Origin: Sarea resinae
Lineage: Eukaryota
DNA length: 64,000 nt
Assembly (NCBI GenBank): GCA_026026165.1
Contig: JAPEUD010000005.1
Coordinates: forward strand, 124,001 to 188,000
Direction: 5' to 3'
Below the pieces are notes generated by a model. That model did not search any database, was not told where the DNA came from, and saw only the letters and a program-made list of their open reading frames with translations. Within the stretch, counting starts at the first letter, position 1; the number at the start of each line of letters is the position of its first letter. Of the stretch, positions 48,875 through 53,727 are shown in pieces. The position numbers and the translations under genes are program-made.

Positions 48875-50554
48875 CTAGGATCGCCCGCCACCAGCAGTTC
48901 GAAGGGAGCCCTTGCCCATGTTGCCGTGACCATGATTGCCATGAGAATGGAAGACGTCTCCCATCCTCGATAAATCGGCAGCTTCGCGGCTTTGATAGTT
49001 CTTAGGAGCCTTGACTTCTAAACCTGCATTCAGGAGATTCATCCGTGTTAGGTGCAGGTAGGCAGCCTGTTTGTAGCTCAGGACGAGAGTAGTTGCCTCT
49101 CTGTGGGCTGTGGAACGGAGGTCCGTTTGTATTGCCGTTAGGACCTGCTTGAGCGGTCAGACCAGGAGCCAGACTCATGACAGGGTAAAGAGTTGATACT
49201 CAATGGAAAAGAGGGTACCGACCTTGTTCTGAGTGTCGATCCTAGCATTGAGAGCTCCAGACTGGATCATAGCGACAAGTTCATCCTCGATAGAACCTTC
49301 ATCAGTCCCGAACGCTTGCGCCATACTATCAAGTGTAACGGTACTGAAGGGAATGAAATATTGAACAATGCTCTTAGTCCGCACTGAACGGTAGAGATCC
49401 GCAACATGAGGTTGAAGATAAATGTCCAGGAGATAGTCGGTCTTGTAGGCCTCGAGGATATCGAGACATTGCGAATATTTGGAGTTGCAGAAAAGAGTAA
49501 TGGCACGGCGGATGTGCGGCTCCAAGGCTAGGAAATTGCGAAAAGAAGAATTCTTCAAGACTTGGTCTTGGAGCTCCGCGCGGTCCATGCTTGCAAGTGC
49601 ACATATGCCGCCGTATACGGCAACGTCATTACTCGTGAGGACATGTTTGAATTGGCTGCCCAGGCTGGGATCGGTCCGTAGGAAGCTCACAGCCGCCTCC
49701 TTATAGTTTCCAGCCCCCAGCTGTGCTAATCCCCTGCTTGCACAGACATATGGCTGAAATTTTGCTTCGTCATCAGGGTTATGGAGCAGATTCTGAATCT
49801 TCTGAACGTTGGAGAGAACCGACATCCAATTACCTTGCTCGATGCAAGTCACCACTAATCTCATATTCATGTCGAAAACGTTTTTCGGAGTCGTGCAGTA
49901 GTCTCGCATGCGAGAGTAGCATTTGTATGCTTGCGAAAGATCGCCGATGCGGTGATAGAGGAGCCCGAGGTCTTCATTGCCCATCTATGGCATTTTAGTA
50001 ATTGCCTTGACATCTCGGACCAAGAATGAGCATACCCGTATGCTCTCTTTGATGAGATTGTTCTTGTAACCTTTCAGCTCAAATTCAAGCTTCTCCGTCT
50101 CGGCCTTCACTCGTTTTTTCGTGAAATCAACCCAATCCATATCAATCGTTGCATCGGGATCTTCTGGTGCTGTTTGGCGTAAGGAATCTACTGCGAGCTG
50201 GTACCGTGAGACATCTTCGCCATGCTTAGCTTCTGCGACAGCTGCCTTCAGAGCGTCATGAGAGAGAAAAGCAGAAGTGCGCCCGATCAAATAGAGGCGG
50301 TCGAAGCGTGTCCGGCCTGTGGCGAGCAGTCAGATGATAGCTCTTCAAAGTGAAACGGCCATATCAGATCAGCCGGGTATTCCTACCTTCATAATTGGCA
50401 ATGTATGCCTCGAGATCGAACTTCGGAGGATCTGCGAATACATCAACAACGAACGACAGGAACGCCACGATAGGATATCCTCACCTTTAACGGTAGGATT
50501 CAGAGGGGACGTGGCAATGTGATGATCTGGGGGGAGTGTATCTTGAGCGGCCAT
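48875..50554 (-). CDS. CSN1: COP9 signalosome subunit 1 (PCI domain)
   Basis: PPKFDLEAYIANYE, RTRFDRLYLIG, ELKGYKNNLIKESIR|MGNEDLG, YSRMRDYCTT, NDVAVYGGICALASMDRAEL, DYLLDIYLQPHV, ARIDTQNK|VLTA. Four introns. Confidence 0.93.
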
Positions 50555-50999
50555 GATGTGTGGCTTGAGGCGCCCAAGGTTGAGTGAGGATTCAATGAGA
50601 TCAGAGCGCGGCTATCTGTATTATCTTACCTAGTAGTGATGCCGTAGAAGACTACGGAGTACGCGAATGGGTCGTATCGCTTCCTGTATCATAAATACAG
50701 TATCATAAATACAGGGGGTGTGCAATCTGAGAAGCTGACTGGATACGAGTTCATGAATTAAATTCAAGTTATAACGAGAAGAGCCAGATAATCTTAAATG
50801 TCCAGTGTCCAGCACTTGCACACAAAGTCCAACACGCCTGACCCCTGCCCGGTTCTGACAACCTTTCTTTTGCCCACGCTGAATTAACCCAGAAAAGACG
50901 CTAAGACGTGCAGAATTTTGGACTTGTCCCTCAAGTCAAGATGAGCACGGAAAGGAGGAGAGATAGAAGAAAAAGGCCATGTATGTGCACATAGGTCAA

Positions 51000-53727
51000 T
51001 CATGTCATGAGCGATTGCGGATCAATTGGGACCAATTGGTCAAAATCCCAGGGTCCTTTTTCTTCGGCCGTTGCGTCATGAAAGGCATCCGCTCTCCTCA
51101 ATGTCTGAACGTCCAAATCACTCACAGACATATCGCCACCGAGCGGATGCATCCGTATCTCATCATCAAGCATCATCTCATCTTTGCAGAGACGCCGCGG
51201 CCCATCGTAAACGCAAAGAACTCTCTTCTTCTTTTTCATACTGCTGGCGGGACTTCCCCATGAAGGAGGATAATTCTTCCTCTTTTTACCTCCTCTGCCA
51301 ACCAAAGGCACACCACCCTTCGAAAATGTAAGACCGTGACGCGTCGAGTCCTGAACGCGGCGAGAATGACTGGAAACGACGTCCCCAATGTGCGAGGAAG
51401 CATCTTGGGGACGTTCTAATTGTCAACAATTATTGGTCTTCTTTGAACGGCTACTGCCTCTCCTAGACGAATCTTGAGTAGGCATATTGTGGACTTGGGC
51501 AGAAGCACTCCCAGAGGATTCGACATCAGAACCCTGGCCCCCGCCAAGGCGATAATCTAGACTCGGTGAGGGTGTCACCTGTACAGACTCAACCTCCGGG
51601 ACAGATAAAAGGTTCCTTTCATTTGTGGCCTCAGAAGGATCTTCCTGCTGCACAAATCGAGAGACACAGTCGTCTAGATGTTCGTATAGATCTTGAGCAT
51701 TGTTGAATATTCCCTGACAAGTGGAGCATTTGCCTGTCGCATCCTGAGGATATCCAGAGAATGTTTGTTTCATTCCGGAAACCGGGCTTCTCCTCCGACT
51801 ATTTGGAGCTGTCTGCTCAACCCCATGAACCGAAGTGAGGTGGCGTTTGAAAACATCAGCACGATTGAAGCTCTTTCCATCGGAAGAGCCTGTCCCAGGG
51901 CAGAAACCGCAAATCATCGTTCCTTTGTAGTGGGTAAGTGTGTGCCTGTTCTTGTCATATTTCCGAGCGAATCCTTTGTGGTGGAACGGGCATGTTGGAA
52001 TAGGACATTTCTCAGGTCGCTCAGGCTGGTGAGTGATCATGTGTGCCTTCAGGTCCTTGAAGGTCTTACCACAATCTAGGCATCTGCCCTTCTCTGTCCC
52101 TTCCTCTTCGATATCGGTACTAACCGATTGTGGGCTGTCCTTAGAGAGACGAGACTGTTGTGACGATACCGAAGACCTTCGAGGCCTCGACCGGGGGTAT
52201 GGCTGAAATGAAGTTCTGTGAAGATAAGGCGATTGACTTCCGGACTTGAGACTCATCGAACCTGGCCTTTTCTGACTTCGGGTTGAGGAAGTAGATGGAG
52301 GTGGCGGTGACGACTGGAAATTGGGTAATTGAGGAGGCTGGAAAGTGGCCATATCCTGGGAGTATGGTATAGGCGTAGGGGTATTATGGGAGGTAGGGGA
52401 TTCGAAAGGTTGTATCAGAGCAGGATCTATAAGAGTTGTAGTTAGTATCAGAGCAAGTGAGCCATTTGTATGTAGTAGAAGAGTCCAGCCATAAAGAACA
52501 TGGAAATGTCATGAAATGTGCTAAGAAAACCAATACTGGAAACCAACAAGATGAATAAAGCGGAGCAATGAAATGGCCACTGCTCTGCGTGAAAAAAGGA
52601 GAATGATGGAGTTCCATCGGTGGTTGGGAAGGTTCCCGCTGAGGAGGTGCTGGTTTCCTGAATGGGCTGCTTCTATGACTTTGAAAGGGATGGCTTTCTG
52701 GTCTGACTGCGTCGGTGATGATATGGGGCTTATTTCTGCTATTTGCTCTAGGTGAAACGGAGGCGAAAGGATTAGATGGTGTTGGTATTTCGACACTCGT
52801 CCTGGAAGTGCTTTGGGTCCTGGGTCGGGACGTATCCTTGTGCCCGATCAAATATGGAGTGCTGGAAGAAAGTGCTGAAGTAGGAGAAGAGGACAGTCTC
52901 GGGGTGCTGACGTCGCTGTTGGCCTTGTCAAGGATCGTGTCGATAGAGACCTCAGGCTGTTCCACAGAGCTACTAGGAGTGAATCCAGGAGTCGGATAAA
53001 GATATTGAGAAGCCAATGCAGACGAAGGAACAAAATTGTTGCGAGACTGTTCAGACGGAAAAAACGTTCCGGACTCACCCACGAAGCCACCCTGACCTTT
53101 GCCCCAGGAGGCAGCACGCACTTGGCCATAATTGGCCAAGGAAAGGCTCTCTGAAGCAAGGCTTTCGGATGTGACAATGCCAGTACCAATACCCAGACCC
53201 TGTCCAAGCTCAGGCCACCGTTCAATCGGGGCAGAGCTCTGTGGAGCGTTCGAGTACGGTGATCCCATGGTAGTGACGTTTGAGTACGGCGACCCCATAG
53301 CTGAAGAGGAAGCGCTCGGCGCCGAGGCACCGGAAGCTGACGAAAGGAGAGATGGCGGGTTGTCGTAGGAGTGCGAAACGGAGATGGAGGGTGACGTAGA
53401 ATGAAACTCGCGATAGTGCGTGTAATTCAGGTTGTCTTGCGGGCCATTGACGATAAACTGTGGAGCTCCGTAGGAGTCCTGAGGGCCAGATGAAAATGGG
53501 AGTGCAGATGGCCGAGGCTCATAAGATCCGGATACAGCAGTACAGTAACCACTGTCCATAGAAGAGCTCATGCTGAATGGATAGTCCTCAACCGCATTCG
53601 GGAAGCCGTCAGACCCTAGATTATGATGCGCCATCACTTCGGCGTAGTAAGGCTCAGTATATAAGATAAAGTCGTGCTGGTTGTCAAGAGTGAGCATGTT
53701 TCTCGATTGCTCTGCTACCGACGGCAT
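51000..53727 (-). CDS. C2H2 zinc-finger transcription factor; alternative 5' splice sites; internal in-frame TGA at 51423-51425
   Basis: Fingers CLDC...HMITH, CPIPTC...FARKYDKNRHTLTH, CGFC...FNRADVFKRHLTSVH, CSTC...HLDDC. Acceptor ACTAAC...TAG at 52427. The C-terminal block GLTFSKGG...RKNYPPSWG...KKRVLCVYDGPRRLCKDEMML...DLDVQTLRRA lies in the same frame beyond the TGA. Confidence 0.88.

Follow-up and report, generated by a model that had tools for sequence, protein, structure and literature searches.

A conserved TGA-CAA-YYA context and a 3′ hairpin suggest programmed stop codon readthrough in a C2H2 zinc-finger gene of Sarea resinae

To our knowledge, the experimentally supported cases of readthrough in fungal cellular genes are limited to the UGA-CUA peroxisomal cases and a few yeast genes. 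Freitag and colleagues reportedly described, in 2012, fungal UGA-CUA readthrough that exposes peroxisomal targeting signals. Fungal UGA-CUA readthrough of cellular genes, with exposure of peroxisomal targeting signals, was described by Stiebler in 2014, and the terms 'zinc finger' and 'transcription factor' do not occur in that paper (PMC4207609). For tobacco mosaic virus (TMV) the consensus UAG-CAR-YYA was defined; the CARYYA hexanucleotide also stimulates readthrough of UGA and UAA, and another class of readthrough signals is stimulated by stem-loops that begin from about 8 nucleotides (nt) 3′ of the stop (PMC3542737). The TMV site reads TAGCAATTA and that of plant eRF1-1 reads TGACAATCA (PMC5397192). 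Here we describe a minus-strand gene for a predicted C2H2 zinc-finger factor in a 64,000-nt stretch of the Sarea resinae genome (assembly GCA_026026165.1, contig JAPEUD010000005.1, positions 124,001 to 188,000), hereafter the window, whose own numbering is used throughout. The zinc-finger reading frame of this gene meets an in-frame TGA at 51423-51425, which is followed by the hexanucleotide CAATTA, a hairpin and 140 further open codons. From comparison of sequences, we judge the probability that this is programmed readthrough, directed by a TMV-type hexanucleotide together with a 3′ hairpin, to be roughly 0.8.

The closest likeness is to the type I signal of the TMV replicase (UAG-CAA-UUA), whose hexanucleotide is identical to the CAA-TTA of the window and conforms to the CAA-YYA of its orthologs (PMC3542737, PMC5397192). 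As with the replicase, a C-terminally extended product would be made from one mRNA, which in the fungal gene is a prediction. In contrast to TMV, the site lies in a cellular fungal gene, uses UGA rather than UAG and is followed by a conserved hairpin that is absent from the type I motif as described. Plant eRF1-1 shares the 9-mer TGA-CAA-TCA with many of the fungal loci and has a highly conserved context with moderate readthrough (PMC5397192), but there the site serves the autoregulation of a termination factor through nonsense-mediated decay, whereas the fungal extension is a conserved protein domain. Type II and III viral signals likewise have UGA, a spacer of 8-9 nt and an extended stem-loop (PMC3542737); CGG or CUA is typical after their stop, whereas the fungal element combines CARYYA with a stem-loop. 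The UGA-CUA fungal cases are also programmed UGA readthrough of cellular genes, but in the context CUA(G) and with short extensions that carry a type 1 peroxisomal targeting signal (PTS1) on metabolic enzymes (PMC4207609). In animals, readthrough alters the C-terminus of DNA-binding regulators such as Drosophila Drifter (a POU factor) and human VDR (PMC8417969, PMC5868278), in another kingdom and with other signals; the fungal extension is a 140-residue (aa) domain that is constitutively fused in sister clades. Finally, adenosine-to-inosine (A-to-I) stop-loss editing in Sordariomycetes also extends proteins past a conserved stop in filamentous fungi, but it acts at the RNA level, favours UAG in hairpin loops and is confined to the sexual stage, whereas the TGA-CARYYA described here lies upstream of its hairpin (PMC13123824). 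Among open-access papers and bioRxiv preprints we found no published report of readthrough for this family or for any fungal C2H2 factor.

On the minus strand the sequence around the stop reads ...AAT AAT TGT TGA CAA TTA GAA CGT..., the CAATTA hexanucleotide (51417-51422; CAR-YYA, TMV-type) lying directly 3′ of the TGA. The first-pass annotation of the window had pointed to a zinc-finger frame that stops at TGT-TGA-CAA-TTA-GAA and then stays open for about 140 codons. This was confirmed: the TGA occupies 51425-51423, and 140 codons (51422-51003) follow in phase with the zinc-finger frame and encode all of the peptides that had been quoted from them (GLTFSKGG, RKNYPPSWG, KKRVLCVYDGPRRL, DLDVQTL and EEKGPW). 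The extension closes with a terminal TGA (51000-51002; ...LMT*) that coincides with the usual C-terminal end of the family, where orthologs read ...LM[SA]* and the terminal stop is TGA, TAA or TAG. Since the same gene terminates at TGA at the family C-terminus, TGA is a true stop in the source organism. Apart from the in-frame TGA, the gene carries no disruption of its frame. By our own arithmetic, 140 open codons would arise by chance with a frequency of about (61/64)^140 = 0.001, and homology settles the coding status in any case. Taken by itself, the 9-mer TGACAAYYA occurs in the window about as often as expected (2 observed, 2.09 expected); its significance derives from its in-frame position and its conservation among orthologs.

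In the first-pass annotation the open block had been taken to be the conserved C-terminus of a C2H2 family, and searches with it bear this out. The 140-aa query gave 339 proteins (246-2000 aa) at E<=0.001, many of which come from Pezizomycotina and bear the label C2H2 or zinc finger in their source records. PF28332 is present in all of the best 120 of these 339, as assigned, by accession only, in a precomputed Pfam column of the homologs' database. The conserved domain itself (GLTFSKGG...GPW) lies at 51048-51335 on the minus strand and contains the basic stretches KKRK and KKKKR. A HMMER scan with the fingers, an X and the extension as one query returned 745 matches at E<=0.001, the best of which align in a single stretch over query positions 2-475. 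In alignment A1, the extension matches 13 orthologs at their C-terminus and shares their end point, and the zinc-finger cluster (CLDC...H to ...HLDDC, minus strand, 51666-52082; Pfam zf-C2H2, E 3.9e-06) is a nearly invariant block of columns. Judged by these alignments, the gene is a Pezizomycotina C2H2 factor built of a finger cluster, a variable linker and a PF28332 C-terminal domain. For the latter, neither a usable match in the protein atlas nor a solved structure by profile search was found. NsdC, an Aspergillus C2H2 factor of sexual development, has two C-X2-C-X12-H-X3-H fingers and a C2HC finger (PMC13599534); identity with NsdC was rejected on a hand count against this described spacing, rather than against the NsdC sequence, as it is unlike that of CLDCGKTFKDLKAHMITH or CPIPTCPFHHKGFARKYDKNRHTLTH.

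To assess the conservation of the stop, we used 80 ortholog loci obtained by scanning metagenome contigs, in which finger and C-terminal matches were placed by tblastn. Both matches were present in 74 loci and shared one frame in 73 of these, with linkers of 108-318 nt; exactly one in-frame stop separates the domains in 54 of the 73 and none does so in the other 19. The stop is also carried by L031, which is frameshifted further downstream, and by the truncated contigs L023 and L042, whereas L051, L054, L061 and L075 end before the site, leaving 76 loci that cover it. The first-pass annotation had proposed such a comparison, with a sense codon in close orthologs as the finding that would speak against readthrough; the opposite was observed, since 57 of the 76 covering loci keep TGA-CAA-YYA in frame at the homologous place and the stop is TGA in 57/57. 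Together with the window, these loci provide 42 distinct contexts of 93 nt, and all 42 conform to TGA-CAA-YYA: CAA is followed by Y (T 33, C 9), Y (T 26, C 16) and A (42), after which stand R (42), C (40) and A (35). YYA encodes either Leu (as TTA or CTA) or Ser (as TCA), and this switching implies that a pattern in the RNA, not a residue, is conserved. The peptides that flank the stop are conserved as well (SGKGxIKSxKSH * Q[LS][TA]HP[RQ]GV), and in alignment the stop of the window falls on that of its orthologs (NNC*QLERPQDASSHIGD against NSC*QSAHPQGVASHVGGG). Two loci show further lesions, namely an in-frame stop inside the conserved ...EAINQ*RL... of L075 (about 1060-1626) and the frameshift of L031, about 25 codons past the leaky stop (after about 1400); either might stem from misassembly or mark a copy in decay.

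In the window and in some other loci the stop follows a Cys codon, which could be read as a hint that the UGA encodes selenocysteine. However, the residue before the stop is variable (C, S, A, N, H, R, D, Q) and the site falls in a disordered linker. Moreover, a search of 50300-51500 against Rfam gave no match at E<=1, thus no selenocysteine insertion sequence (SECIS) and no family for the element or of any other kind. We give selenocysteine practically no credence.

Downstream of the hexanucleotide, the minimum free energy (MFE) fold and covariation define an RNA hairpin at 51379-51414 on the minus strand. Its 10-bp stem starts 8 nt after the stop and is formed by the 5′ arm ACGUCCCCAA (51414-51405) and the 3′ arm UUGGGGACGU (51388-51379), which enclose a 16-nt loop (51404-51389). 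The window sequence folds with a z-score of -3.09 over 110 nt and -4.25 over 69 nt. When 12 representatives were folded singly, the hairpin started at position 15-18 of the shared 69-nt frame in all 12, and z was -2 or lower in nine, the exceptions being L015 (-1.97), L065 (-0.09) and L079 (+0.62). In a 29-sequence alignment, 78.2% of the cells of the 10-pair helix are paired, compared with 40.4-54.3% in controls whose partner column is displaced by 1-3 positions, and changes on both sides occur in 30 cells, in 8 of the 10 pairs, compared with 4-17 cells in the slid controls. None of 500 shuffles matched the observed value for three measures, and 10/500 and 17/500 did so for the other two. Pairing is retained despite differing peptides, as in CAUCCCCG/CGGGGGUG, encoding HPRG...VGGG, and in AACUCCCG/CGGGAGUU, encoding NSR...TGSF; the window arms ACGUCCCC/GGGGACGU likewise pair and encode RPQ...GDV. 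The stop is thus followed, after about 8 nt, by a 3′ stem-loop that is stable and supported by covariation. Neither the hairpin nor the phylogenetic depth of the site had figured in the first-pass annotation.

The linkage between stop and signal is captured by R1, a covariance model that was built from 14 sequences and has 69 positions, with 13 pairs. In a search space of 488,589 nt (the window and all 80 loci), R1 matches the stop site of the window (51360-51428) and 56 of the 57 stop-bearing loci, and it matches none of the 19 stop-less loci. It misses L079 and is weak for L041, L053, L062, L064 and L071 (E 0.014-0.1). The remaining matches are three weak ones on the reverse strand of the palindromic stem.

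The extension evolves as protein-coding sequence. Past the stop, the ratio of non-synonymous to synonymous substitution rates (dN/dS) is 0.050-0.394 in 14/14 pairs of stop-bearing loci, and upstream of it 0.012-0.095 in the 12 computable pairs; the pooled ratio of the corresponding proportions (pN/pS) is 0.185 downstream and 0.098 upstream. The sequence after the stop is under purifying selection. Furthermore, one 600-nt contig of RNA run X1 spans 50900-51338 at about 98% identity, with 8 differences from the window, and all five differences inside the extension (51018, 51054, 51111, 51168 and 51285) are synonymous third-position changes. Translation might nevertheless always end at the TGA, the C-terminal domain being made separately by reinitiation, from an internal start or from a second transcript. 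The extension does contain conserved Met residues that would suit such a product, within KMKMKKR in the case of the orthologs and SSMKKKK in that of the window. However, the approximately 60 codons between the stop and these Met residues are conserved in frame, including GLTFSKGG and KKRKxYPxSWG, the 19 stop-less loci fuse both parts in one open reading frame (ORF), and neither CAA-YYA nor the hairpin would be explained. A separate product is therefore highly improbable.

Splicing offers another route to a long isoform, if a non-canonical or alternative intron removed the TGA from some or all transcripts. Several of the metagenome contigs bear on this question. L016, L019, L024 and L037 are without segments that are present in the genomic locus L015, L076 is without two segments of L078/L070 (99.8-100% identity), and L025 is without one segment of L069. 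The missing segments start with GTAAGT, GTGAGT or GTCGGT, hold CTAAC-type branch sites and end in YAG. We infer from these missing introns, rather than from library records, that the six contigs represent spliced mRNA. All six, from three ortholog groups, follow the genomic sequence without a break across the TGA, which they thus keep while lacking upstream introns. In addition, one frame is maintained in 73 of 74 loci and coding conservation reaches the stop from either side, so that an intron could not be accommodated. Within the window, the upstream GT sites GTAGCC, GTTCAA, GTCTAG, GTCCAC, GTGCTT, GTCGAA, GTTCTG and GTTGAC are all without a G at +5. The first-pass annotation had said as much of the donors upstream of the stop, and by hand check this holds, the real intron of the gene using GTTGGT...TACTAAC...TATAG. 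In-frame introns with donors at 51454, 51448, 51508, 51532, 51468, 51494, 51524 and 51427 were rejected on hand inspection. None of these donors is GTNNGT, and of the introns formed with the paired acceptors (51416, 51404, 51370 and 51351) several would be 12-51 nt long, while others would delete conserved residues.

Some features do fit a spliced-out stop. The codon before the stop ends in GT (GTTGAC) in the window and in Lecanoromycete-like loci, some loci have strings resembling CTAAC or TTAAC past the stop, a minor isoform would be compatible with the assembled contigs, and public ortholog models arrive at the C-terminal domain by leaving out the segment around the stop. On the other hand, the variants TCAAC and TCAGC match YYA but not a CTRAY branch site, and the skipped segments vary among close relatives, as artefacts of gene callers would. 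Of 30 ortholog gene models that were aligned, most have gaps at the stop, and no two of the three from Pyrenophora (P0287, P0280 and P0278) are gapped alike. P0107, P0006, P0039, P0040 and other named models also skip the stop, and one model carries a frame-shifted patch. In a clustered representative library, seven predicted proteins (P0129, P0138, P0157, P0159, P0167, P0169 and P0171) end 8-12 residues past the SGKG.IK motif, exactly at the stop. Such inconsistent gaps and exact ends indicate that gene callers either truncate the protein at the stop or invent an intron around it, which looks like systematic mis-annotation caused by a recoding site; R1 could be used to flag the ortholog models affected. 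Overall, we regard removal of the TGA by splicing as unlikely.

The same contigs bear on A-to-I editing, by which UGA would become UGG at a developmental stage, as in Sordariomycetes, a possibility already raised in the first-pass annotation. Fusarium and Neurospora make wide use of stop-loss editing, whose sites are tied to local hairpins, but fungal editing favours UAG and adenosines in the loops of hairpins (PMC13123824). In the present gene every stop-bearing locus has TGA, in which a G precedes the A, and this stop stands 8-9 nt before the hairpin and not within the loop. Moreover, the stop-bearing clades fall into Dothideomycetes and Lecanoromycetes groupings and the lineage of the window, not into Sordariomycetes, and the intron-less contigs read TGA, not TGG. 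Editing is thus very unlikely as the source of the long form.

The spread of the site was examined in a quick tree of 99 rows, a more careful tree search being unfinished. The class of four anchor species was checked, and the other named rows are placed in the classes to which we take them to belong. Stop-bearing loci group with Lecanoromycetes (Pleopsidium, Alectoria, Psora) and with Dothideomycetes (Alternaria, Pyrenophora, Paraphaeosphaeria, Lepidopterella), and one stop-bearing clade is sister to Elasticomyces. Stop-less loci group with Eurotiomycetes and Leotiomycetes, with two small exceptions, L011/L012 and L018/L020. In the stop-less loci the segment *Q[LS][TA]HP[RQ]GV is missing or unrecognisable, and in all 19 the finger part and the C-terminal part form one continuous ORF. 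In L018 (about 1300-1420), which is Dothideomycete-like and stop-less, the codons CTC CAG TCT possibly correspond to TGA CAA TCA, a homology that is uncertain; if it holds, the hexanucleotide would decay once the stop is lost.

The window copy is a divergent member of the family. Its best relatives in the search tables have 47-59% protein identity to the gene, a value that rises to 69% within a portion of the 140-aa domain, and no close relative (none above 59% identity) was present among the protein libraries and metagenome contigs searched; the stop was therefore compared with loci outside the window's own class. Sarea belongs to Sareomycetes, a sparsely sampled lineage. The copy is altered at otherwise invariant sites (W to C in RRLWKD, and CLDC for CPxPEC) and has a 2-residue deletion before EVRM. 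Despite these unusual substitutions it keeps the stop, the motif and an improved hairpin. Its very long branch and the changes at invariant positions, such as W to C in RRLWKD, would suit a nonsense allele private to this copy, a lesion in a pseudogene or an error in the base call. However, 57 of 76 distant orthologs have this stop, in this context, at the corresponding position, the gene is otherwise intact in frame, the five recent differences in the extension are all synonymous, and the hairpin of the window is kept by compensatory changes relative to other clades. A private lesion is accordingly hardly credible.

Orthology is also reflected in the gene's neighbourhood. The gene for CSN1 (COP9 signalosome subunit 1) adjoins the factor in the window (49175-50540, minus strand), and its exon at 49226-49984 is 100% identical to P0334, labelled by NCBI as from a Sarea resinae metagenome-assembled genome, the next best match having 72%. 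Locus tags place the factor directly beside CSN1 in two Capronia species and a Chaetothyriales genome, and at a short distance from it in Pyrenula, Thelocarpon, Piccolia and Trizodia. This neighbourhood, which recurs across several classes, supports orthology over paralogy.

A number of points weigh against readthrough as we propose it. The X1 contig, the sole one from an RNA library for the species of the window, ends at 51338, 85 nt short of the TGA, which leaves room for splicing or editing at the stop in this species; no X1 contig covers 51339-51800, a gap that carries no evidential weight. The metagenome contigs count as mRNA by virtue of the introns they lack, and as assemblies they display the dominant isoform only, so that a minor spliced form could exist. 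The loci are related and partly redundant, comprising 42 distinct contexts and, in the quick tree, roughly eight clades, and 19 of the 76 have no stop, so that the short isoform would be dispensable in some clades. With regard to the hairpin, it is weak or absent in L065 and L079 (z -0.09 and +0.62), its arms lie in Pro/Gly-rich coding sequence (CCC, GGG), and the structure tested was taken from the window's own fold and applied to sequences related to each other. Likewise, R1 was trained on 14 of the sequences that it was used to search, including 13 stop-bearing loci. Finally, the terminal branch of the window is the longest in the quick tree (0.94; median 0.047), as might be expected either of relaxed constraint or of an undersampled lineage.

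The gene model in the window was derived by ourselves from ORFs, translation and splice signals, and runs on the minus strand from a start ATG at 53727. Exon 1 (52548-53727) comprises 393 N-terminal codons and 1 nt, and the N-terminus MPSVAEQSRNMLTLDNQHDFILY lines up with the starts of orthologs. It is followed by a 121-nt intron (52427-52547) with donor GTTGGT, branch site TACTAAC and acceptor TATAG, whose removal gives ...PLYSS-Y-PALIQ..., matching the ortholog junction SS-YPSLIQ. Exon 2, up to the leaky stop, extends over 51426-52426 and encodes the zinc-finger region and the linker. A candidate alternative 5′ splice site, GTGAGT (FVG|), is present at 53073-53078 and would use the same acceptor, as suggested by homology. 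Splicing from this donor (53078) would yield ...FVD-PALIQ..., a junction found in many shorter gene models. Relatives also show an alternative 5′ splice site with a shared acceptor, L016 and L024 dropping 537 nt and L019 and L037 dropping 110 nt; in the genomic locus the segments are L015:3463-3999 (long) and L015:3895-4004 (short). In L045, L053, L068, L069, L072, L079 and L080, which group with Pleosporales, the ORF is unbroken from the start Met through the fingers. The intron of about 315 nt that L069 has and L025 lacks is in frame and open, and its retention could give a longer N-terminal isoform.

According to the mechanism that we propose, most ribosomes would terminate at the UGA (51425-51423) and release a predicted protein of 727 aa, consisting of the N-terminal region, the fingers and the linker. 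A fraction of ribosomes would decode the UGA by a near-cognate tRNA and continue for 140 codons, giving a predicted isoform of 868 aa that adds the conserved basic/globular C-terminal domain. By analogy, the residue inserted at UGA would be Trp, Cys or Arg. The recoding signal would have two parts, CAA-YYA directly 3′ of the UGA and a hairpin whose outer stem of 9-10 bp starts 8-9 nt downstream. Programmed readthrough with a short and a long isoform had already been put forward in the first-pass annotation, and it gains support here from the conserved stop, the hairpin, the intron-less contigs and purifying selection. The long protein, like the occurrence and efficiency of readthrough, the inserted residue and the role of the long isoform, is what we infer from these sequences. 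The KKRK-type basic stretches might, speculatively, serve nuclear import or binding of a partner.

With somewhat less confidence than in readthrough itself, we think it probable that the two-part element is ancient, predating the split of the Dothideomycete-like, Lecanoromycete-like and window lineages, that it sets the ratio of short to long factor, and that it was lost as a unit in the clades grouping with Eurotiomycetes and Leotiomycetes; it seems to be unreported, and to be mis-annotated in most of the models examined. If this is correct, a fungal regulator would contain a deeply conserved readthrough site, and its pairing of the TMV hexanucleotide with a hairpin would offer a natural system for the study of how two such elements cooperate in a eukaryotic cell. 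Furthermore, a stop codon would have acted in this family as a long-lived isoform switch, which whole classes later hard-wired to the long form.

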